Shown here: positions 8,250 to 61,517 of the stretch, piece by piece
How positions within the stretch are numbered: the stretch's first letter is position 1
Layout: the number at the start of each line of letters is the position of its first letter
Source: Candidatus Omnitrophota bacterium
GTDB lineage: Bacteria > Omnitrophota > Gorgyraeia > Gygaellales > Profunditerraquicolaceae
Assembly (NCBI GenBank): GCA_043823435.1
Contig: JBDRAV010000003.1
Span: forward strand, 96,366-160,365
Length of the DNA: 64,000 bases
Direction of reading: 5' to 3'
Translations under genes and position numbers: made by a program
The notes under the pieces: model-generated
The model's database searches: none
What the model saw: the letters and a program-made list of their open reading frames with translations, nothing else
What the model was told of the DNA's origin: nothing

Positions 8250-8253
8250 ATTT

Positions 8254-8318
8254 TAGTCCATAGTTCCTTGTTCATAGCTCATAGTAGACAATGAGCTAAA
8301 AATTATGAACTATGAAAA
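8254..8318. repeat. two-armed heptanucleotide-periodic palindrome
   Basis: Left arm: tagtcca tagttcc ttgttca tagctca tagtaga. Right arm: atgagct aaaaatt atgaact atgaaaa. tagctcat/atgagcta and catagttc/gaactatg are perfect 8-bp complements. Confidence 0.75.
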
Positions 8319-8328
8319 AACCGCTATT

Positions 8329-9906: not shown

Positions 9907-9920
9907 AGAATACCTCGTTA

Positions 9921-9982
9921 GTTGAGCTCTTTGAGTTTATTAAGTTGCTTGGATTCTAGGACAATATAAACTCAACAAACTC
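9921..9982. repeat. imperfect palindrome of the GAGTT family
   Basis: ttgagtttat (9931-9940) and ataaactcaa (9966-9975) form a perfect 10-bp inverted repeat. The 12-mer tttgagtttatt is shared with 20333-20344. Confidence 0.65.
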
Positions 9983-10000
9983 CATGAGCCCTATAACTGC

Positions 10001-10996: not shown

Positions 10997-11022
10997 GCGC
11001 ACCTCCTTTGATTAACTATCAT

Positions 11023-12326: not shown

Positions 12327-12412
12327 GGGGTTTTAATAGACAGACAATTTATAGAGTACCATCGACTTAAATTGTAGCCCTTGCTTTTCCGGTTGTCGAA
12401 ACACCTGTAAAC

Positions 12413-18352: not shown

Positions 18353-18493
18353 AGAGACGTTTACCGAGTTAATCGGGAAGGTGTCCCTAATCCAATCGTT
18401 CTCTAAAATTGGGAAGCTATACCTTGAATTCTTTAAGGAACACCTTCCCGTTCAGACCAAAGACACTTTCCGCTTTGGCTTGGAAAACGTCTC
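18353..18493. repeat. second copy of the GAGACG-family long imperfect palindrome
   Basis: agagacgtttaccgagttaatcgggaaggtgtccc (18353-18387) matches 61396-61430 closely. Outer stem pairs 18354-18362 with 18485-18493. Inner stem pairs 18374-18386 with 18437-18450. Confidence 0.8.
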
Positions 18494-20300: not shown

Positions 20301-20316
20301 ATTCTACCCCCCTTAA

Positions 20317-20381
20317 GTTTTGAGTCTTGAGTTTTGAGTTTATTCTCCAGCTTCTAACTCTTAGCTCATAACTCCTAACTA
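20317..20381. repeat. two-armed heptanucleotide-periodic palindrome (GAGTTNN units)
   Basis: Left arm: gttttga gtcttga gttttga gtttatt (20317-20344). Right arm: ctaactc ttagctc ataactc ctaacta (20354-20381). The right arm overlaps the tig stop codon. Confidence 0.75.
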
Positions 20382-21250: not shown

Positions 21251-21303
21251 CCCGCTCTTCCTTTCCTAATTAATACCCCGACCCTTTTGGAAGGACGGGC
21301 CCC
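21247..21303 (-). promoter_or_regulatory. repeated hairpin + RBS + GTG-start leader cassette, copy A (tig)
   Basis: The 20-mer tcaccccgctcttcctttcc (21247-21266) is identical to 24506-24525. Upstream hairpin is CCCGTCCTTCCAAAAGGGTCGGGG (minus-strand sense). Confidence 0.7.
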
Positions 21304-26113: not shown

Positions 26114-27127
26114 TTATTTTATCCTTTCTAATAACTCTTTTCTGTCGGTAACTGCCGTGCCTAATTTACCGACCACAATGCCGGCAGAGAAGTTAGCGAT
26201 ATGCGCGGCCTCAAGCTTTGAAGCCCCGCAGCAAAGCGCCAGGGTAAAACTGGATATTACCGTATCACCGGCGCCTGAGACATCAAATACCTCCTGCGCT
26301 ACCGTCGGTATATGCGTCAGACGTCCGCCCTTCTCAAATAAACGCATCCCGTGTTCGCCTAAAGTCACAAGCAGCGATTCCAACCCCAGGTATTTTAAAA
26401 TCTCTCTTGCCGCCGAGTCTATATCCTTATCGGTAAATAATTTATCCGTATTGAACTTAAAAGCGTTAGAAATATCCTTGATGCGCAGATTCCTTATCGC
26501 GTTCTCCAGTTCTCTGCGGTTAGGGGTGATGGAAGTAACGCCCCGGTAATACTGAAAATGCTCCTCCTTGGGGTCTACGGATATTATCTTCCTGCGGGCG
26601 CGCGAAAGCGCGATAATCTCTTCCAATAAATGCATATTTATCACGCCCTTACCGTAATCTTCGATGATAATGGCATCAAAGCCATCGATATTATTTTTTA
26701 CGAACCCGACGATCCGCTTATTAAGTTTTTGCGTAAGGGGATGGGTGTGCTCCCAATCCACCCTGACTACCTGCTGGTGCCCGGCGATAATGCGCGTCTT
26801 AACCGTGGTATGCCGGCGGTTTTCGCTAAATATCCCCGAAGTGTTTATCTTTTTCTTCTTCAGTTCCGATAATAAAAGGGCAGCGTTTTTGTCCTTTCCG
26901 ATAACGCCGGCCAGGCATACGCCTGCCCCGAACGAACGGATATTGCTGGCCACATTAGCCGCGCCCCCAGGGACGAAGGTATGGGTGTCCGCCCATACTA
27001 CCGGTACGGGCGCCTCGGGTGATATCCTGTCTACGCTGCCGCCTATATATTCATCCAGGATTACATCCCCCAGCACGAGTATTTTAGCCTTAGCGAATCT
27101 ATTGATTATCTTCTCAAGGTTCTTCAC
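26114..27127 (-). CDS. hldE: D-glycero-beta-D-manno-heptose-7-phosphate kinase (RfaE/HldE domain I only)
   Basis: 337 aa. PfkB-type sugar kinase with an HldE-like N-terminus (ILVLGDVILDEY) and GAGDT motif. No adenylyltransferase domain. GTG start. Confidence 0.85.
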   Translation of the reverse strand: MKNLEKIINRFAKAKILVLGDVILDEYIGGSVDRISPEAPVPVVWADTHTFVPGGAANVASNIRSFGAGVCLAGVIGKDKNAALLLSELKKKKINTSGIFSENRRHTTVKTRIIAGHQQVVRVDWEHTHPLTQKLNKRIVGFVKNNIDGFDAIIIEDYGKGVINMHLLEEIIALSRARRKIISVDPKEEHFQYYRGVTSITPNRRELENAIRNLRIKDISNAFKFNTDKLFTDKDIDSAAREILKYLGLESLLVTLGEHGMRLFEKGGRLTHIPTVAQEVFDVSGAGDTVISSFTLALCCGASKLEAAHIANFSAGIVVGKLGTAVTDRKELLERIK

Positions 27128-27193
27128 CCCACCCTTCCTCTCCTAATTGTATGCCCCAACCCTTTTGGAAGAGCGGGGTTCACCCCACTCTCC
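27124..27193 (-). promoter_or_regulatory. leader cassette, copy C (hldE), with an extra partial 3'-arm copy
   Basis: tcaccccacccttcctctcc (27124-27143) matches the A/B 20-mer at 17 of 20 positions. ccccgctcttcc (minus-strand sense, 27178-27167) is the exact complement of the A/B RBS segment. A duplicate GGAGAGTGGGGTG lies at 27193-27181. Confidence 0.65.
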
Positions 27194-28220: not shown

Positions 28221-30248
28221 TCAACTATTCAAAATGGCATCCGCGGCAACTATAACATCATCCGTGGTTATCGCTTTAAGACACGCGAACTTCTTGGTGC
28301 AGTTATGCGCCAGACACTCTATACATCCGACCTCTTTATGCAGGACTTTATCTTTTATCCCGATCGGGCCCCAGCGTAGCGGCCCTAAACCCTTCTGGTT
28401 CCTGCCAAAAATAGAGATCACCGGTGTGCCTACGGCCACGGCAATATGCACGGGGCCGGAATCATTAGAGATAAATAAATCACACCTCTTCAAGATGCTG
28501 GCTAACTGGCTGACCGAAGTCTTTCCTGCCAGGTTGACCGCTGGCCGCTGCATATGTTTGACGACGCTCTCAGCCAACGTAATATCCTTAGGACCGCAGA
28601 CCACCAACACCTTGAAGCCATATTTTTCGTTTAACCTGTCAGCTGCTTCAGCGAACCCCTCATACGGCCAGATCTTCGAAGGGCAACTCGCACCCGGATG
28701 TATAGCTAATAATTTATCTGTCTCGCTTATCCCTTCCTGCCTGAACAACTCTTCTACCCAGGCTTCGGATTCTGGTTTCAGTGACATGAATATTTTATTG
28801 TCTTGCGGCTCAATGCCCAGATACCTGACTAAATCCAGGGCATACTCTGACTCATGTTTTTCTCCTGACTGCTTGGTATGCTTTATCCTGTCGGTAAGTA
28901 AAAATCCCAGTTTGCGGTCATAGCCGACCCTGCGGCGTATGCCGGCAAAGAGAGTCACCAGATGCGCGCGGTTGGTAGGATGAAGTATGACCGCTAAAGT
29001 AAACCTCCTCTTCTTAAGTCCCTGCGAGAATCTTAATGAACCCAACCAGCCTTTTTCTTTACCGTCCTTATCGTAAATAATCACTTCATCTAGACACGGA
29101 TTTCCGTCCACGATATCTTTTGTATAAGGAGAGACCATCGCCGCAATATATGCTGAAGGACAGCTATCCCTCAGTGCCTTTATTACCGGAGTCGATAAAA
29201 GCACGTCCCCTATCCTGTCCGTACGCACGATGAGTATGCGTTTATACTCGGTGCTCGGTGCTCGGTGCTCGGTGCTCTGAATTAATATTCTTCTGGCTTG
29301 CCTCAATACGTCTTCTGTTTTGATAAGCTGCATGCATCTTAATGTACCGTGGGCGCACTGCGCTTTTTCGCAAGGACGACAGAAGATATCTTTTTTTACT
29401 ACCGAATATAAGCGTGACCGGGGGCCGTATTTTCTTTCATTGGTCGGTCCGAAAACCGCCACAACCGGCGTATCCAGGTAACTTGCCAGGTGAAGCGTGG
29501 CGCTATCATTGGTAACCACGAGCGCGGATTTTCTCAGTAAAGAGGCAAGCTGCGCAATATTCGTCTTTGCGCTTAGATCCAAAAGGGGATATCGCGTATG
29601 CCCGGCTATGTATTTGTTGACCGGCGCGTCATCATTATCGCCGACCAAAACCACTTTGACTTTAAGCTCTTCTATTAAAGACTCGATTAACTGCGCGAAT
29701 TTATCCTGCTCCCATCTTTTTATATGGCTCCTGGCTCCGGCAGCAATAACGACTATCCTTTCCTGCCCGGTAATATTATTTTCCTTAAGAATATCTATAA
29801 TATATCTTTCATCTTCAGGCTTAACGCATAAAGACACCTGTTTAGTTTTATCATAAAGTCTCAACTTGAGTTTTAGCACCCTGTACAGGTGTCTATCTCT
29901 CATATGCATTATGCATTTTGGAATAACCAGAAGAGGGGAAGTCTTATCTCTGGCAGGTAACAACGCCCCGAAAAGACTGTTACGCATATCCGCGATGATG
30001 TCAAAGCCTTCAACTTTAAGCGCATTAAATAATTTTATCTTCTCCCTTAATGAAGAACGCTTATCGTAAATAATAAGCCTCTTAATATGGGGATTATCCC
30101 GGAATATATCTTTTGTGCGAACCCCGGATACTACCGTGACCTCTGACCCGGAGAAATTATCCACCAGGGTATCCAGGACCGGTAAAGTAAGGATGCAGTC
30201 GCCTATATTGCTTAAAGTAATAAAGAGTACCTTATTAACCATACCCAT
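28221..30248 (-). CDS. tandem glycosyltransferase family 9 (two heptosyltransferase-like modules in one ORF)
   Basis: 675 aa. Two GT9-type N-terminal motifs (VLFITLSNIGDCILTLP and ILIVRTDRIGDVLLSTP) and two C-terminal SNDSGPxH-like motifs. The modules are joined by a heptamer-repeat-encoded linker. Confidence 0.8.
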   Translation of the reverse strand: MGMVNKVLFITLSNIGDCILTLPVLDTLVDNFSGSEVTVVSGVRTKDIFRDNPHIKRLIIYDKRSSLREKIKLFNALKVEGFDIIADMRNSLFGALLPARDKTSPLLVIPKCIMHMRDRHLYRVLKLKLRLYDKTKQVSLCVKPEDERYIIDILKENNITGQERIVVIAAGARSHIKRWEQDKFAQLIESLIEELKVKVVLVGDNDDAPVNKYIAGHTRYPLLDLSAKTNIAQLASLLRKSALVVTNDSATLHLASYLDTPVVAVFGPTNERKYGPRSRLYSVVKKDIFCRPCEKAQCAHGTLRCMQLIKTEDVLRQARRILIQSTEHRAPSTEYKRILIVRTDRIGDVLLSTPVIKALRDSCPSAYIAAMVSPYTKDIVDGNPCLDEVIIYDKDGKEKGWLGSLRFSQGLKKRRFTLAVILHPTNRAHLVTLFAGIRRRVGYDRKLGFLLTDRIKHTKQSGEKHESEYALDLVRYLGIEPQDNKIFMSLKPESEAWVEELFRQEGISETDKLLAIHPGASCPSKIWPYEGFAEAADRLNEKYGFKVLVVCGPKDITLAESVVKHMQRPAVNLAGKTSVSQLASILKRCDLFISNDSGPVHIAVAVGTPVISIFGRNQKGLGPLRWGPIGIKDKVLHKEVGCIECLAHNCTKKFACLKAITTDDVIVAADAILNS
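29247..29274. repeat. (CTCGGTG)x4 tandem heptamer inside the tandem-GT9 ORF
   Basis: Four perfect copies, 29247-29274, followed by a partial ctc. They encode STEHRAPSTE in the inter-module linker. Confidence 0.9.
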
Positions 30249-30254
30249 ATCTTT

Positions 30255-30334
30255 GCACCGTCTGCCAATTCAATCTCGTACCCGGTGCGAGATTAGAAAC
30301 AAAGCAGGTACCCGATTACCTCGGCACCAGGTAC
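30255..30334. repeat. degenerate 23-nt-periodic array, 4 units, related to GCACCWGGTGC
   Basis: Unit starts at 30255, 30278, 30301 and 30324. Cores read gcaccgtctgc / gtacccggtgc / aaagcaggtac / gcaccaggtac. The 12-mer caatctcgtacc is shared with 57554-57565. Confidence 0.6.
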
Positions 30335-30338
30335 TATC

Positions 30339-35324: not shown

Positions 35325-37297
35325 AATACCTTCTTTATCGCTTCTTTAACCAGAAGGTTATCCTTAAGGGTATTTATCACGGGGCGCTCCAGCATTATCC
35401 GGTTGACTTCCGCGGAAAGGTTATCAGCTTGCGTTAAATATATATATCTCTTTTCGGCAAAATACTCAAGGAACCTGCGGTGCTTACTGTTTAGGCCCGG
35501 GGAATCAAAGACCACCACGTATCTTGCGCTGCTTACCGCCTCAGAGATCATGGATATGCTTTCGGCGGAGATAATGACGATATCGCTTAAGGCCAGTATC
35601 CCGGCTACCGCATCCGGGATATTCTTTTCATTGGCAATGATCAGAAGCTTGCATGCGGGATAATCAATGAATTCTTCCTTTAGTAAACTTTCAACCGCAA
35701 CCGGTGTCCTGCGCGAAGTAGTGACCATCAATTCTGCCCCAAACTTCTCTATGCCCATCTTGATCTGCCGCGATACTTCCTTCACCAAACCTGCATTCAA
35801 ATGAAAAGCCTTGGCATCACCGCCCACCAATACGCCCAATACCGGCACTTTACCGGCCTGAACACCCAGCTCTTTAAGGGCCTCTCCGGCCCTTTTCAGG
35901 CGATCTTCATTGATTGAATTTAACGCGCCTTCAATCACCGCGACATTCTTTCTTTCGGGGTGGCGGTGGCTTCGGCTATCGGCAACCAAACCAGGGCCCC
36001 CTGGCAGGTCATGCCGACTCATTACCACTAGGTCAAACCTGTTCGTACTTAATATAGAGGGTCGCATGAGCACTATCGATTTAGCCAGGCTCTCCCTTGA
36101 AATGACATAATTAACAGGTGCGACTGATGTCCCACAGGAGATCACTATGTCCGGTTTAATACTTATCAATTCCTTATAGATTTCTTCTTTCAATAACTTC
36201 TTCAGGCACCCCTGACAGGAGTATTTACCTGATAACACGCAGCTTGCGGCCATGGCAACGCGGGAATATTTACCCCTGAACTTTATCTCTACCGCATTAA
36301 CGCTTGTACTTATGCCTTTCTCGCGCAGGGAATCACTGACTATACCGGCAATCCCCTCAGACTGCCTGAGGTGCCCGGCCTTACCGTCGCTTAAGATCAA
36401 AATATTCCGCTCTCTGCTATATTTCCATATCTTGTACGACCAAAGGTAATCCCGCGGATATTTTACAATATACCTTTCAAATAAGGCCGTCAACGCCTGC
36501 AGATTATCATTTATATCCTTTTCCGGGTCGCCCGTTTTCTTGATTTCAAATGGCGGCTCAACAAAGGCCTTTATGTAGGGTCCTTTTACCCGCGTGTAAA
36601 AGGAAGGGATAATGCAGGCGTCATATTTCAGGGCGAGCCTCACCGCGCCCGAGGGCATAGAAGCGTATTTACCGAAAAATTTTACCTGCGTGCCCGACTT
36701 ACCGCCCTGGTCCGCGGTCATCCCTATCGCCTCATTATTCTTAAGCGCCTTTATCAACTCACGGGTCTGATCCTCCTTCTGGATCAACCTGCAGCCCTTC
36801 TGGTTGCGGTATGAATTAAGGAGGCCATTTAAACGCGGGAACTTCTGGACGCGGATAAAGAGGTTAAAAGGAAAACCCAGGTTCGCGCAGATAATGCTCG
36901 AGAGTTCCCAGCTGCCAGCGTGCACGGTGACAAGGATCACTCCCTTGCCTCTCTTGAAACCTTCATCTATATTCTCTTTACCGTAGATAACCGCATATTT
37001 ACTTATGTATGCCGCGTCCATCAGGGGGATCAGCAGTATCTCGACGAGGCTCTGCCCGAATGCCCGGTAAAATTCTTTTGTCAGGCGGTTTAATTCCCGG
37101 GGCGATAACCCCGCGCCGATTGCGGTTTTTATATTCACGTAAGCTATTGCCCTGTGTTTGCGGTCAAGGTAATAAAAAACTTCTCCCATCCTCGCGCCCA
37201 GGAAGATGCTCGCGCTAACAGGCAGACTCCTTATAAGCGGGCCGATGAGCTTAATGAGAAAATAACCCAAGTAATCTACTACGGAATCCTTCTTCAT
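35321..37297 (-). CDS. LpxL/HtrB-type lipid A acyltransferase fused to an ELM1/DUF1022-like domain
   Basis: 658 aa. The N-terminal ~290 aa carry the HAGSWE (Hx4E) acyltransferase motif. The C-terminal half begins ILILSDGKAGHLRQSEGIA, which is typical of DUF1022. Confidence 0.7.
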   Translation of the reverse strand: MKKDSVVDYLGYFLIKLIGPLIRSLPVSASIFLGARMGEVFYYLDRKHRAIAYVNIKTAIGAGLSPRELNRLTKEFYRAFGQSLVEILLIPLMDAAYISKYAVIYGKENIDEGFKRGKGVILVTVHAGSWELSSIICANLGFPFNLFIRVQKFPRLNGLLNSYRNQKGCRLIQKEDQTRELIKALKNNEAIGMTADQGGKSGTQVKFFGKYASMPSGAVRLALKYDACIIPSFYTRVKGPYIKAFVEPPFEIKKTGDPEKDINDNLQALTALFERYIVKYPRDYLWSYKIWKYSRERNILILSDGKAGHLRQSEGIAGIVSDSLREKGISTSVNAVEIKFRGKYSRVAMAASCVLSGKYSCQGCLKKLLKEEIYKELISIKPDIVISCGTSVAPVNYVISRESLAKSIVLMRPSILSTNRFDLVVMSRHDLPGGPGLVADSRSHRHPERKNVAVIEGALNSINEDRLKRAGEALKELGVQAGKVPVLGVLVGGDAKAFHLNAGLVKEVSRQIKMGIEKFGAELMVTTSRRTPVAVESLLKEEFIDYPACKLLIIANEKNIPDAVAGILALSDIVIISAESISMISEAVSSARYVVVFDSPGLNSKHRRFLEYFAEKRYIYLTQADNLSAEVNRIMLERPVINTLKDNLLVKEAIKKVL

Positions 37298-38351
37298 TTT
37301 TTATGATCTTCAATTCTATGCGCAGGAACCATACCGGCAACTTATAGCCGGTAACCGGAAGCTGGTAAAGCCTGGATGCGTCTTTCTCGGTAGTGACCAG
37401 CACGCTTATTCCCGTATCTGTGGATTTGCTAATAATCTCATCCATATCTTTCTGGGTATAATTATAATGGTCGCGGAACCTGAAAGAAGTGCCGATATTC
37501 ACCCCCTGTTTGCTGACCAGCAGCTCAAAAGAAGCGGGGTCCGCTATGGCAGAGAATAAACCCGCGCTCTTACCCGCCAGCATATCCGCCCCCATCAGTT
37601 CACGCGGTTTATCCAGCCTGCAAAATCCCAAAGGGGCATGCGCGGACTCTACCTGAAAGGCCCCCGGATTGATACGCCTCAAATAACCCTTGACCTCATC
37701 TTGTGCCGGGCTAATATTGGCCTTGGTCAGTATAAAGATGTCGGCGCGTTTAAGCGATGAAAGCGGCTCGCGCAATATCCCGCGGGGGATAAGATTACGG
37801 TTCCCGAAAGGGAAGGTACTGTCAACGGCAACTATCTCAAGGTCCTTTTTTATGCGCCACTGCTGCATCCCGTCATCCAAGATCACCGTATCCGCTCCGT
37901 AATCGCGTATTGCCGAATTTCCCGCGCGTATCCTATCATGATCTACTATCACGGGTATATCTTTCAAGTTCATCTGCAGCATATAAGGCTCATCGCCCAT
38001 TGCCTCGGCGTTCGGTGTTCGGTGTTCGGTGTTCGGCCGAGAACCGAGAACCGAGAACCGAGAACCCATTCTTTTATATCCTCTGCTAAGTATCGCTACT
38101 TTATGCCCATGCTCCTTTAAATAGCGCGCAATATACAATACGAGGGATGTCTTCCCTGTCCCGCCCAAAGTAATATTTCCCACGCTGATAACTTTACATC
38201 CCAGCCGGTAAGGTTTAATGCGATAAATAAAGAGTAATATCCTGACAACTAGTCCATAGATAAGAGAGATAAGGTAGAGAAAAGAATTGAGCGTCCCCGC
38301 TACGGGCCCTCTATGTTTATCTGTGGCCAGTTCGTAAATATAACGTAACAT
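37251..38351 (-). CDS. lpxK: tetraacyldisaccharide 4'-kinase
   Basis: P-loop GNITLGGTGKT, SRGY and GDEP motifs. I prefer the start at ATG 38351 (MLRYIYE), which overlaps the stop of the upstream gene (TGATG). The ORF-track start at 38507 lies inside that gene. Confidence 0.85.
   Translation of the reverse strand: MLRYIYELATDKHRGPVAGTLNSFLYLISLIYGLVVRILLFIYRIKPYRLGCKVISVGNITLGGTGKTSLVLYIARYLKEHGHKVAILSRGYKRMGSRFSVLGSRPNTEHRTPNAEAMGDEPYMLQMNLKDIPVIVDHDRIRAGNSAIRDYGADTVILDDGMQQWRIKKDLEIVAVDSTFPFGNRNLIPRGILREPLSSLKRADIFILTKANISPAQDEVKGYLRRINPGAFQVESAHAPLGFCRLDKPRELMGADMLAGKSAGLFSAIADPASFELLVSKQGVNIGTSFRFRDHYNYTQKDMDEIISKSTDTGISVLVTTEKDASRLYQLPVTGYKLPVWFLRIELKIIKNEEGFRSRLLGLFSH
38004..38064. repeat. 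two-armed heptamer palindrome inside lpxK
   Basis: ctcggcg (ttcggtg)x3 ttcgg, then (ccgagaa)x4. The central tcggccga is a perfect 8-nt palindrome. The element encodes GSRFSVLGSRPNTEHRTPNAE. Confidence 0.9.
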
Positions 38352-38623
38352 CAGATCCTTCCCAATAACATCAGTATGCCCATTACGATAAATAATGACG
38401 CCCCGGCATACCTGATAAGCTCGGGCTTTAAATATTTTGCCAGGACAGCTCCCAGAATAACCGATAAAATAGTAACAGCGGCGTAGGCCAAAACAGAGCC
38501 TGCCCATACGGACAAGGGCCTGCCGGATTTCGCAGACATGCTTATCCCCACCAGTTGCGTCTTATCCGCAAGCTCCGCGAAGAACACTGCCGTGAATGTA
38601 GCCATAAATATTTTCCACTCCAT
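38351..38623 (-). CDS. UPF0016 (GDT1/TMEM165) family membrane protein, single-repeat form
   Basis: 90 aa. Three TM helices, an ELADKT (E-x-G-D-K-T-like) motif and an AAAGAGGAG SD. Confidence 0.75.
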   Translation of the reverse strand: MEWKIFMATFTAVFFAELADKTQLVGISMSAKSGRPLSVWAGSVLAYAAVTILSVILGAVLAKYLKPELIRYAGASLFIVMGILMLLGRI

Positions 38624-46906: not shown

Positions 46907-46944
46907 TAAAAGCCCGCTATTTGCCTAAAAAATAGCGGGCTTTT
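46907..46944 (-). terminator. intrinsic terminator after spoVG (bidirectional shape)
   Basis: A 12-bp stem, AGCCCGCTATTT (46911-46922) with AAATAGCGGGCT (46930-46941), flanked by A and T runs. It lies immediately upstream of the aroK promoter. Confidence 0.7.
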
Positions 46945-46952
46945 ACCCAAAC

Positions 46953-47253: not shown

Positions 47254-48294
47254 CTAACGCGTTTTTTTCAGATAATTTTTGTAATTATCCTTTATATCAG
47301 ATAGTGAGTCGCTGCCGAACTTCTCAAGGAGGGCATCTGCCAGTACATAAGCAAGGGCGGACTCGGCGATTACGCCTGCTGCCTCTACCACGCAGATATC
47401 CGAACGCTCAACAGACGCCTTGGCAGGCTTCCTGCTGACAATATTCACGGAATTAAGGGGTTTAAGCAGAGTCGCGATCGGCTTCATGGCGGCGCGGATA
47501 ATAATATCCTCGCCGTTAGATATGCCACCTTCAATGCCTCCGGCATTATTCGTCTTATGGAAATAACCCCTTGCCTTATTGTAGTAGATAGCGTCATGGC
47601 ACTCAGAGCCGAATTTGTGCGCATATCCAAAACCCAGGCCTATTGCTACTGCTTTTACTCCGGGTATAGACATTATGCCTTGCGCTATGCGGCCATCAAG
47701 CCGCCTGTCAGGTTGAACATAGCTTCCCAAACCACAAGGCACGCCTTGGGCTATAACTTCAAATGCGCCTCCTATAGTATCCTTATTATCCTTAGCCAGC
47801 TTTATTTTTTTAACCATCGATTCAATTCCCGGCTCTCCTCCGATAGAAAGAACCAGGCTGGCTATATCTATGCCAAACTCCCCTAAAAGTACCTTGCATA
47901 CCGCGCCTATCCCTACGCGGATAGCGGTCTCTCTGGCAGATGCGCGCTCAAGGACATTGCGCGCGTCTTTAAACCCATATTTTAAAATACCAGCCAGATC
48001 CGCATGCCCGGGGCGCGGACAGAACACAGAAGGAAGCTTCTCAATAGTAAAATCCTTATTCTTGATACAGAGCGTAATCGGGCTCCCCAGAGTCACGCCT
48101 TTCTTAAGACCTGAGACTATCCTGGCTTTGTCATTCTCTATCTGCATGCGCGCACCTCGGCCAAAACCCTGCTGCCTGCGCTTTAATTCCGCATTTATCA
48201 TCACCTCGCTAAGTTTAAGTCCTGCGGGGATATTCTCTAAAATAGCCACTAGCGCCTCACCGTGCGATTCACCTGCAGTCAAATATCTCAACAT
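47254..48294 (-). CDS. aroC: chorismate synthase
   Basis: LRYLTAGESHG N-terminus. ATG at 48294 has GGAGGT 6 nt upstream, whereas the ORF-track start at 48306 is a TTG inside the RBS. Confidence 0.95.
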   Translation of the reverse strand: MLRYLTAGESHGEALVAILENIPAGLKLSEVMINAELKRRQQGFGRGARMQIENDKARIVSGLKKGVTLGSPITLCIKNKDFTIEKLPSVFCPRPGHADLAGILKYGFKDARNVLERASARETAIRVGIGAVCKVLLGEFGIDIASLVLSIGGEPGIESMVKKIKLAKDNKDTIGGAFEVIAQGVPCGLGSYVQPDRRLDGRIAQGIMSIPGVKAVAIGLGFGYAHKFGSECHDAIYYNKARGYFHKTNNAGGIEGGISNGEDIIIRAAMKPIATLLKPLNSVNIVSRKPAKASVERSDICVVEAAGVIAESALAYVLADALLEKFGSDSLSDIKDNYKNYLKKTR

Positions 48295-48310
48295 ATCTAC
48301 CTCCAATTTT

Positions 48311-48367
48311 GCACCTGGTGCCAGATTAACTTTGCACCAGGTGCAAAGTTAAGATTGTACCTGTCCC
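48311..48367. repeat. 23-nt-periodic array, 3 units, core GCACCWGGTGC
   Basis: Unit starts at 48311, 48334 and 48357. Cores read gcacctggtgc / gcaccaggtgc / gtacctgtccc. Unit 2 is the centre of a 25-nt perfect palindrome at 48327-48351. Confidence 0.85.
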
Positions 48368-48369
48368 CT

Positions 48370-48933
48370 TTATCTCCAAAGCCCTCTTTTATTCTCCCGT
48401 GCCTCACGGTATAGCTTTAAAAATAAATCCGCGTATTTTACGTTAGGCGGAAAAGTCATCACCGACGCATACCCCTGCCTGATGATCTCCGCGTTCACGA
48501 AAGTATTATCCTTCTTTAAATATACGTAAGCCAAAAGCCGCTTATATTGGTCGTACTTCTCCACGTCAAATTCTAAACTTGCATGCTGGCCTTCTGCCAA
48601 ATTTCTCGTAAATTCATAAGCGCGCCTGCCTAACTCCTGAATAGCGCTAATTCTGCGTCCTGTCCTCTGACTATCCCGGTATAATTTATCTGACTCATGC
48701 ATCTCAGGCGTATCTATGCCGATAAGCCGCACCCTCTCCCCGGACTCAAGTTCTATGGTATCTCCGTCGATCACGCGCCTGATGAGGATATCAGTATAGT
48801 TATAGGTCTTACCGAAGGGTAATTTAAATTTCCAATCTTCGGTATTATAGATCACAACCGGCTCATCTGCTATAACCCGGCAAGCAAACCCTAAAGAGAG
48901 CGCTATAAGCAATAAGATAATGCGCTTTTTCAT
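48370..48933 (-). CDS. secreted thermonuclease (staphylococcal nuclease, SNase fold)
   Basis: 187 aa. Signal peptide and SNase-like motifs (VIDGDTIEL...VRLIGIDTPE). Confidence 0.8.
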   Translation of the reverse strand: MKKRIILLLIALSLGFACRVIADEPVVIYNTEDWKFKLPFGKTYNYTDILIRRVIDGDTIELESGERVRLIGIDTPEMHESDKLYRDSQRTGRRISAIQELGRRAYEFTRNLAEGQHASLEFDVEKYDQYKRLLAYVYLKKDNTFVNAEIIRQGYASVMTFPPNVKYADLFLKLYREARENKRGLWR

Positions 48934-57044: not shown

Positions 57045-57524
57045 TTATCTTGTGCTTTTACGCTGCGGTTTCTCCTTATTTAATATATCCTTTAATTCCA
57101 CCATGAACTGGCCGACATCCTTGAACTGCCTGTACACCGAGGCGAACCTCACATAAGCAACGTCATCCAGCACCTTTAACTTCTCCATCACCAACTCCCC
57201 GATGCGGGAGGCCTGGACCTCACGGTCGGATTTCTTCTGGATGGCGCGCTCTATCTGCACAAGCATATCCTCCATCTTCTCCATGCTGATCGGCCTCTTT
57301 TCGCAGGCCCGGATAATACCGGAGAGTATCTTCTTGCGGTCAAATGGCTCGCGCCGATTATCCTTCTTTATCACCAGGAGGGATACCTCCTCTATATATT
57401 CATACGTGGTAAAGCGCTTGCCGCACTTTAAGCATTCGCGCCTCCTCCTGATCGCCGATTCCTCGGCGGTCCCGCGCGAATCCACTACCTTATCCTCTTT
57501 ATAACCGCAGTAAGGGCACTTCAT
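57045..57524 (-). CDS. nrdR: transcriptional repressor NrdR
   Basis: MKCPYCG zinc ribbon plus ATP-cone. ATG 57524 is preferred. The ORF-track extension to 57587 runs through the repeat array. Confidence 0.9.
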
Positions 57525-57537
57525 CAGTTTTAATATT

Positions 57538-57617
57538 GCACCTGGTGCGAAACCAATCTCGTACCTGTCCTGTTTTTGTGCTGGCACCTGGTGCGCGATT
57601 GCATTTGCACCTGGTGC
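57538..57617. repeat. 23-nt-periodic array, 4 units, core GCACCTGGTGC
   Basis: Unit starts at 57538, 57561, 57584 and 57607. Cores read gcacctggtgc / gtacctgtcct / gcacctggtgc / gcacctggtgc. Confidence 0.85.
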
Positions 57618-58081
57618 TATTTTATTCTTCTTACCTTTATCTTCGCTTCCTTTAAGAATTCCTGCGCTAATTTATCCGGATAGTATCCTACGGTGACTAT
57701 CTCTTTAACGCCGCCGTTAATGAGCATCTTGGCGCAGATAATACAGGGCTGATTGGTAATGTAAAGAACGCTCTCTTTCGTGCTTACCCCGTGGAGCGCC
57801 GCCTGAAGCAATACATTCTGCTCCGCGTGCAGGCCGCGGCAGAGCTCATGGCGCTCTCCGGAGGGAATCTTCATCTTTTCTCTCAGGCAGCCGATATCAA
57901 TGCAGTGCCTGATACCCGAAGGCGCTCCGTTATAACCTGTAGCTAATATCTTCTTCTCCTTTACCAGGACAGCGCCTACCTTGCGCCGAAGGCAGGTCGC
58001 CCTCTTAGAGACTAAAAAAGCTACCTCTAAGAAATATTCATCCCAGCTTGGGCGTTTATAAGCATTCTGCTTCTTTTTCAT
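57617..58081 (-). CDS. comEB: dCMP deaminase (ComEB-type)
   Basis: 154 aa. HAEQN and PCIICAK zinc motifs. Confidence 0.9.
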
Positions 58082-61372: not shown

Positions 61373-61517
61373 AGAGACGTTTTCCAACCTAATCCAGAGA
61401 CGTTTTCCGAGCTAATCGGGAACCTGTCCCCTATAAGGAACGGGTTCCGCTTTGGACCAGAAGACGTCTCCGCTTTGAGCTGGTAGACGTCTTTGCTTTG
61501 GGGCGGAAAGCGTCTCT
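61373..61517. repeat. two-armed 23-nt-periodic GAGACG/CGTCTC array (about 145 nt)
   Basis: Left-arm units at 61373 and 61396 (agagacgttttcc...). Central GGAACC/GGTTCC hairpin at 61419-61448. Right-arm CGTCT units at 61465, 61488 and 61511. Confidence 0.85.

Follow-up and report, generated by a model that had tools for sequence, protein, structure and literature searches.

REP and BIME sequences are short palindromic units dispersed through intergenic DNA, for the most part between genes that run in one direction and shortly after a coding region ends. Such units occur in clusters of alternating orientation with conserved linkers, form species-specific families, and include adjacent units that co-fold into larger hairpins (PMC3733652). 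Their copy number and occupancy vary between close relatives (PMC3733652), and an individual REP unit pairs over 5-13 bp around a loop of 2-20 nt (PMC3733652, Table 1). A comparable arrangement of palindromic units lies between the genes for an SNase-family nuclease and chorismate synthase (aroC) in the 64-kb stretch of Candidatus Omnitrophota DNA analysed here, hereafter the window.

Other precedents are modular in different ways. BOX elements of Streptococcus pneumoniae have the arrangement boxA-boxB(n)-boxC, with variable tandem internal modules, and are co-transcribed and predicted to form long stable hairpins. The ends of Tn7 contain multiple 22-bp TnsB sites, and some MITEs have subterminal repeats. 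The array upstream of aroC is probably one copy, lacking its left arm, of a group of small modular hairpin repeats that are specific to an Omnitrophota lineage and are inserted at co-directional housekeeping-gene junctions. This repeat family is apparently undescribed so far: a literature search for its 11-mer core matched only primers and unrelated sequences, and in the literature searched no paper treats extragenic or miniature inverted-repeat elements alongside Omnitrophota. It is shown below that the repeats recur at unrelated junctions, are missing from the orthologous junctions of relatives, have a hairpin potential well beyond that of shuffled sequences, and lie inside operons.

The array at the SNase|aroC junction

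The 11-mer GCACCWGGTGC occurs exactly five times in the window (48311, 48334, 57538, 57584, and 57607), against an expectation of 0.00 and with no match in any of 100 shuffled sequences. These exact occurrences are confined to the junctions upstream of aroC and nrdR and are spaced on a 23-nt phase. The two core modules at aroC, GCACCTGGTGC (48311-48321, the 3'-most module on the coding strand) and GCACCAGGTGC (48334-48344), are self-complementary 11-mers and exact reverse complements of each other. The third unit, GTACCTGTCCC, starts at 48357 and is degenerate, matching the core at 7 of 11 positions. TRF reports a period of 23 at 48308-48352. A scan of the window at lags of 20-26 nt gave three self-similar stretches at lag 23, of which 48304-48358 is one, and a single stretch at lag 20; lags 21, 22, and 24-26 gave none.

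Both analyses bear out the 23-nt-phased array, with units at 48311, 48334, and 48357, that the initial annotation had placed before aroC, and they leave several of its details to be amended. The perfect palindrome is real and is centered on GCACCAGGTGC, but it extends over 27 nt (TTAACTTTGCACCAGGTGCAAAGTTAA, 48326-48352), the 25-mer first described being its inner part. The array does fill the interval between the nuclease stop codon and the aroC ribosome-binding site, but the interval is not 63 nt long; 65 nt separate the stop codon (48370-48372) from the Shine-Dalgarno sequence GGAGG (48300-48304). A module common to aroC and nrdR was likewise recognized correctly, in that the minus strand of the window contains GGACAGGTAC exactly twice (48357-48366 and 57561-57570), and in both places 12 nt and a core come after it. 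The start codon was said to come next, but at aroC a second core module intervenes.

Chorismate synthase (47254-48294, minus strand) and the nuclease (48370-48933) were both identified by Pfam. The aroC gene starts with the ATG at 48294, not with a TTG at 48306. Its Shine-Dalgarno sequence and its ATG at 48292-48294 (together 48292-48304, minus strand) are ancestral and lie outside the element, which is a 66-nt insertion (48305-48370, minus strand) relative to empty sites such as TGGAAATA|GGAGGCAATTATG in L145 and nine others. The insert provides the final base of the TAA stop codon of the SNase gene, and its other end abuts the aroC Shine-Dalgarno sequence. Read on the minus strand, the copy is A-AGGGGACAGGTAC / AATCTTAACTTT / GCACCTGGTGC / AAAGTTAATCTG / GCACCAGGTGC / AAAATT. 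It consists of a central unit (GGGGACAGGTAC, 48357-48368, minus strand), which is common to both repeat subfamilies described below, and two modules only; the left arm is missing. The best fold of this copy is a 14-bp stem with a 12-nt loop, and the stem stops 3 nt short of the Shine-Dalgarno sequence.

Scans for sigma-70-like promoters found none on the coding strand of the aroC or nrdR array. Similarly, scans for intrinsic terminators found none on either strand of the aroC array, and the sole site in the nrdR array is on the non-coding strand (57544-57565). An intrinsic terminator is a GC-rich hairpin with a U run after it, but the aroC stem is followed by AAAAUUGGAGG. Because the arrays have no promoter- or terminator-like site on the coding strand, the aroC element is most likely transcribed within an operon, which would comprise the Zn-ribbon, DUF3786, SNase, aroC, and spoVG genes.

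Signals near the array served as a control. An intrinsic terminator and a TTGACA-17-TAGAAT promoter follow spoVG, 1.4 kb from the array (46949-46874, minus strand), and both are conserved in L142, L143, L145, and L146, the close relatives whose sequence there was read. The terminator looks bidirectional, with stems at 46907-46922 and 46930-46945, and the promoter after it is of the near-consensus extended -10 kind. A putative operon promoter near 50052-50024 is conserved in L144 and L145. The signals after spoVG show that the lineage uses standard sigma-70 signals.

Familiar identities for the arrays were tried and rejected. The sigma-54 consensus TGGCAC-N5-TTGCW has a GG-GC separation of 10 nt, and in TGGCACCAGGTGCA the two elements are by eye 8 nt apart. 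The NrdR box has the consensus acaCwAtATaTwGtgt, a 16-bp palindrome. No such box is present in the arrays, and the one match in the window, at 12342 with 3 mismatches, is at chance level. CRISPR arrays have repeats of at least 21-23 nt and unique spacers of similar length, a geometry at odds with an 11-nt core, mutually related 12-nt linkers, and only 2-4 units. Finally, inspection by eye for an attC-like site found no RYYYAAC/GTTRRRY boxes, and the flanking genes are syntenic housekeeping genes.

Copies in the window and in relatives

Reading all intergenic gaps of the window on the coding strand yielded further copies, and the 23-nt modular architecture is present at five junctions within the 64 kb, all between co-directional genes. 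The nrdR copy (57525-57617, minus strand) is a four-module hairpin element with modules at 57607-57617, 57584-57594, and 57538-57548 and the central unit GGACAGGTAC at 57561-57570. It lies between the genes for dCMP deaminase (57617-58081) and NrdR (57045-57524), both identified by Pfam; its first base is the G of the deaminase TAG stop codon, and it ends 13 nt ahead of the nrdR ATG at 57524. A degenerate four-module copy (30249-30338, minus strand) separates two GT9 heptosyltransferase genes, its modules starting at 30255, 30278, 30301, and 30324 in exact 23-nt steps.

Copies of this GCACC kind are called B-type here, and those of a second subfamily with AGAGACG stems are called A-type. One A-type copy (61373-61517, minus strand), upstream of a putative purE recognized from its translated N-terminus, has AGAGACG/CGTCTCT stem modules, 23-nt tandem units, and the central unit GGGGACAGGTTCC. 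The other (18353-18493, minus strand) lies at the junction of serA, which encodes phosphoglycerate dehydrogenase, with a class-V aminotransferase gene taken as serC. Both have a central GGGGACAGGT-like unit and a 23-nt tandem unit, with CAAAGC linkers in the left arm and GATTAG linkers in the right, and in A-type stems AGAGACGYTTTCC is paired with GGAAARCGTCTCT. Their stem sequences differ from those of the B-type, but the two subfamilies are built on one 23-nt module and have the central GGGGACAGGT unit and GATTAG linkers in common.

Family members are also found outside the window. Metagenomes were scanned for pairs of cores separated by 8-38 nt, which gave at least 120 loci. Most are satellites or coding repeats with no relation to the family (a coding sequence that recurs with a 34-nt gap is one example), and among the matches listed the family is represented by L100 and L122 alone. 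In L100, a four-module element occupies the rpsG|fusA junction of the str operon. L122 (38% GC) has a central unit followed by modules, as in the aroC copy, at a junction that by eye lies downstream of a PilZ-like gene. The nrdR, GT9, and L100 copies align without gaps over 92 nt, with 76% identity between nrdR and L100, and fold into one common consensus hairpin of 28 pairs. The 10 intact copies seen, which come from three organisms of 38-47% GC, all have the 11-mer exactly and differ in their linkers.

A covariance model, R1, was built from the nrdR, L100, and GT9 copies, three sequences being too few for a covariation test. In the window it detected only known copies, scoring 108 bits at nrdR, 93 at GT9, 34 (plus strand) and 30 (minus strand) at aroC, and 21 at the A-type copy upstream of purE. 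On 270 kb from relatives it returned L100 and L122 together with weak matches to unrelated GC-rich arrays in L117 and L085. Profile HMMs and covariance models run over ∼270-370 kb of relatives' sequence yielded no additional copies. Rfam 15 gave no match in the window at gathering thresholds and none in L100 or L122 at E<=1.

The same core is found in unrelated settings. Scans of viral contigs found eight unrelated iteron-like arrays, none of which has the GGACAGGTAC module. GCACCWGGTGC arrays with a 21-23-nt period and different linkers, for example several occurrences of GTGCACCTGGTGCACCACCCTGT, are present in L147-L154 (IMG/VR) and in the metagenomic L084 and L117, at 32-72% GC. These phage and metagenome arrays are possibly iterons or operators for a DNA-binding protein family.

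Copies begin 0-10 nt past a stop codon and finish 6-31 nt ahead of a start codon; for full B-type copies the distances are 0-7 nt and 6-13 nt, and the start codons lack a Shine-Dalgarno sequence. Every copy has the same orientation as the genes, an orientation that coincides with the leading strand, so that the two cannot be separated. Terminal inverted repeats are found in the A-type, nrdR, GT9, and L100 copies, and the aroC copy has one arm only. Predicted hairpin energies are -32 to -63 kcal/mol for the window copies and -59 kcal/mol for L100. Folding of the spacers as RNA, proposed in the initial annotation, gave hairpins far more stable than shuffled controls at all five window junctions (z-scores -2.9 to -5.7; -2.9 to -5.8 over all RNA folds). 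Folded as DNA, the aroC and nrdR copies have z-scores of -3.0 to -7.3 on both strands.

The SNase-aroC synteny is conserved among the orthologous loci of relatives, and the contents of the junction are not. In 11 relatives with 66-79% AroC identity (L004, L006, L007, L008, L010, L014, L015, L016, L017, L144, and L145/146) the gap is 9-20 nt, as in TGGAAATAGGAGGCAATTATG of L145. Five lineages (L001, L003, L142, L143, and L009) have other hairpin elements there: A-type in L001/L002 (85% AroC identity) and L003 (78%), GGGACTGTCCC palindromes in L142 (80%), and a third family in L143 (78%). Because the relatives' junctions are empty or differently filled, the 66 nt at 48305-48370 are a derived insertion. 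The nrdR array is also derived, since the deaminase|nrdR junction has zero gap in L001, where the genes overlap at ATGA, and in L007; the element is absent in both. The serC|serA junction is likewise empty, at 25 nt, in the closest relative, L155 (91% SerA identity).

Some relatives have sets of their own. In the L001 genome, A-type copies stand at both aroC and serA and are ∼87% identical to each other. The L143/L157 lineage has its third family at tig|clpP, clpP|serC, and SNase|aroC (L143 769-826; L157 4035-4099, 4709-4825, and 5963-6015). Its unit runs ACACCCCGCGC...GCGCGGGTGT, then a small hairpin GCCCTTGTGGGC, then AAGGAGG, placing the Shine-Dalgarno sequence inside the repeated unit. No consistent target-site duplication was found on comparing filled with empty sites at aroC and nrdR or in the flanks of the 9 copies inspected. 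The AAGATTAG-like flanks, considered as such duplications, more likely belong to the linker motif of the element itself.

The window also contains repeats of other kinds. The LpxK gene (37251-38507, minus strand) contains, in frame at 38005-38066, 62 nt of palindromic heptamer repeat, (TCGGTGT)x4.6 then (CCGAGAA)x4.3. The repeat adds ∼20 residues (MGSRFSVLGSRPNTEHRTPNAEA) in place of GRGT in the L001 orthologue and resembles the in-frame palindromic RPE insertions of Rickettsia. A gene for a 675-aa GT9 protein has a perfect heptamer tandem, CTCGGTG x4.4, at 29247-29277, related to the LpxK heptamers through the common CACCGA. Two minus-strand regions, ∼21251-21300 before trigger factor and 27128-27180 before the gene at 26114-27127, have a common ∼45-nt motif, CTTCCAAAAGGGTYGGGG..AATTAGGARAGGAAGRGYGGG, which ends at the start codon and whose tail is also found in L155. 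Finally, AT-rich gaps at 8250-8328, 9907-10000, 11003-11020, and 20301-20374 contain the short recurring words CTATGGACTA and ATGAGCT and repeats of AAACTCAAAAC; imperfect palindromes are also present there, among them repeat I3 (8259-8314).

Assembly, spread, and possible effects

The building block of the family would be a 23-nt module, made up of an 11-13-nt stem segment and a 10-12-nt linker, frequently with GATTAG or GATTGG in it, and the modules appear to be duplicated in tandem. The full element would have the order M-linker-M-loop-GGGGACAGGT unit-linker-M, which over ∼92 nt is predicted to form one imperfect hairpin of ∼28 bp. Because the B-type stem segment is self-complementary, the arms of this hairpin read as a phased direct repeat, and any two B-type modules should be able to pair. 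Segments between modules may also invert, which would account for the inverted GATTA motifs in the aroC linkers and for the 27-nt palindrome. Candidate routes of spread are a transposase acting in trans and recombination or slippage between palindromic modules. No transposase was seen among ∼40 window genes annotated directly or via synteny, a set that covers about two-thirds of the genes, or in the annotation of L001.

In mRNA or in transiently single-stranded DNA, the two modules at aroC would form the 14-bp stem and 12-nt loop, starting ∼25 nt past the SNase stop codon and ending 3 nt before the Shine-Dalgarno sequence. If message stability, processing, or translational coupling were affected, this would be a by-product, not a conserved regulatory design. 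A functional sequence had been expected to be present and conserved in close relatives; at both the aroC and the nrdR junction it is absent or replaced, which goes part of the way toward refuting a regulatory role, and nearby real signals are kept. The original view that the syntax common to aroC and nrdR reflects a functional or mobile unit and not chance survives in its mobile sense, given copies at five window junctions, at rpsG|fusA in L100, and in L122, but a conserved aroC/nrdR control site is not supported.

Several points count against the hairpin-repeat reading. No target-site duplication was found, no transposase was seen in the genes annotated, sense and antisense folding energies do not differ consistently, and the copy number in the genome is extrapolated from 64 kb. 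The 11-mer is exact despite drifting linkers, a hint of sequence-specific protein recognition, since pairing alone should tolerate compensatory changes. Moreover, all copies have the same gene orientation, which is not required of a purely selfish DNA palindrome.

One rival explanation holds that the hairpins are selected intercistronic RNA elements, kept as RNase III or RNase E processing sites, as 3' stabilizers, or as a means of holding stop and start codons close for translational coupling. It draws on the sense orientation of every copy between co-directional genes, the short distances to stop and start codons, and the length and stability of the hairpins. In addition, three full copies abut start codons without a Shine-Dalgarno sequence, and the nrdR junction was ancestrally an overlapping ATGA. 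There are reported precedents: Newbury, in 1987, is said to have found that E. coli REPs stabilize upstream mRNA, and Liang, Rudd and Deutscher, in 2015, reportedly found that REPs within 15 nt of a stop codon cause ribosome stalling. However, folding energies and G-U use have no consistent bias between sense and antisense, the antisense strand folding better at nrdR, the purE-upstream copy, and L001, so that nothing argues specifically for an RNA-level role. The same junctions function without the elements in relatives, no Rfam family matches, and the three available sequences are below the need of a covariation test. Selection at the RNA level is judged unlikely.

A protein-recognition array belonging to a mobile element is an equally doubtful alternative. 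The modules would be transposase or recombinase sites, and the copies would be non-autonomous derivatives of an unseen parent. Modules inverted on the two arms at a fixed 23-nt period, a core exactly conserved across organisms, variable presence among relatives, and a right terminus that is consistently ...AAnATT are all consistent with this proposal. It is weakened by the absence of target-site duplications and of a transposase in the sequence examined, by the one-armed aroC and L122 copies, and by the existence of two subfamilies, which would require different enzymes. A bolder reading, to which a similarly low likelihood is assigned, is that the repeats are an undescribed, Omnitrophota-specific class of mobile or cis-acting DNA. 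A sequence-specific protein of their own, such as a new mobilizing enzyme or a nucleoid- or operon-organizing factor, would recognize their 23-nt-phased, exactly conserved palindromic modules. The elements would enter essential operons precisely in the interval from stop codon to translation start, with expression preserved.

Least likely, and improbable on present evidence, is an operator array in which a dimeric regulator binds double-stranded GCACCWGGTGC cooperatively at a 23-bp phase and co-regulates aroC, nrdR, and other genes. The cores are indeed perfect 5+1+5 palindromes of the type bound by dimeric proteins, with an extension to 27 bp in the aroC copy; no intact copy departs from the 11-mer, and the linkers are variable; the strict 23-nt spacing approximates two helical turns; and the phage iteron-like arrays make it plausible that proteins reading such a core exist. 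Transcription-factor operators are expected to be conserved upstream of orthologues and to overlap promoters, but these arrays are missing at the orthologous junctions of relatives that conserve true signals, are operon-internal and offer a regulator no promoter-like site on the coding strand, contain no NrdR box, precede functionally unlinked targets (aroC, nrdR, a heptosyltransferase gene, and fusA), and have sister elements of the same architecture whose wholly different AGAGACG/CGTCTCT cores could not be read by one regulator.

With the hairpin-repeat reading preferred, the compact operons of uncultured Omnitrophota, the str operon included, would be colonized by fast-turning-over, lineage-specific hairpin repeats. 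The filled junctions show tolerance of 65-150-nt inserts where genes ancestrally overlapped or were separated by only a Shine-Dalgarno sequence. In annotation, such arrays are open to misreading as operators, CRISPR-like arrays, or small ORFs. Repeats that differ between close lineages could be of use in strain typing. The result removes a candidate regulatory link between aroC and nrdR and adds none.

Relation to known repeat systems

Plasmid and phage iteron and operator arrays resemble the family in having palindromic cores at ∼22-23 bp, and the GCACCWGGTGC core itself is found in phage contigs. Their linkers are unrelated, however, and the repeats described here occupy operon-internal housekeeping junctions, are not conserved at orthologous sites, and have sister elements with other cores.

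MITEs such as Correia/NEMIS, together with the Rickettsia palindromic elements (RPE), are closer in form. Like them, the Omnitrophota repeats are 65-150 nt long, have terminal inverted repeats in full copies though not in the one-armed aroC copy, insert beside or within genes without destroying them, and vary in presence among relatives. In contrast to them, the repeats have no target-site duplication, no known related autonomous insertion sequence, and an atypical 23-nt periodicity. BOX elements share the design of a modular intergenic repeat with tandem internal modules and long hairpins, but they have no sequence similarity to this family, their modules are 45-59 nt and not self-complementary, and they belong to another phylum.

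The differences from REP and BIME sequences lie mainly in the modules. The GCACC modules have no unpaired GTAG/CGTC tag and are flanked by TTT, AAA, or similar, and the A-type CGTC sits inside the stem and not as a tail. Furthermore, each GCACC module is a perfect 11-nt self-complement on a strict 23-nt period, a non-palindromic central unit, GGGGACAGGT, is found across subfamilies, and no RAYT (Y1 HUH) transposase is among the ∼40 annotated window genes. Membership in the REP or MITE families is thus not established: B-type copies lack the GTAG/CGTC tag, and neither a target-site duplication nor a transposase was seen.

On the other hand, the family has in common with REP and BIME sequences its short palindromic units, placed between unidirectional genes and close behind coding regions (five copies in 64 kb), their clustering in alternating orientation with conserved linkers, its lineage specificity, the co-folding of adjacent units, and a copy number and occupancy that vary between close relatives. 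A lone module cannot fold, but two adjacent modules form an 11-14-bp stem with a 12-nt loop, in keeping with the stem-loop that defines a REP unit. By analogy, then, the family would best be read as a REP/BIME-, BOX-, or MITE-like modular repeat.
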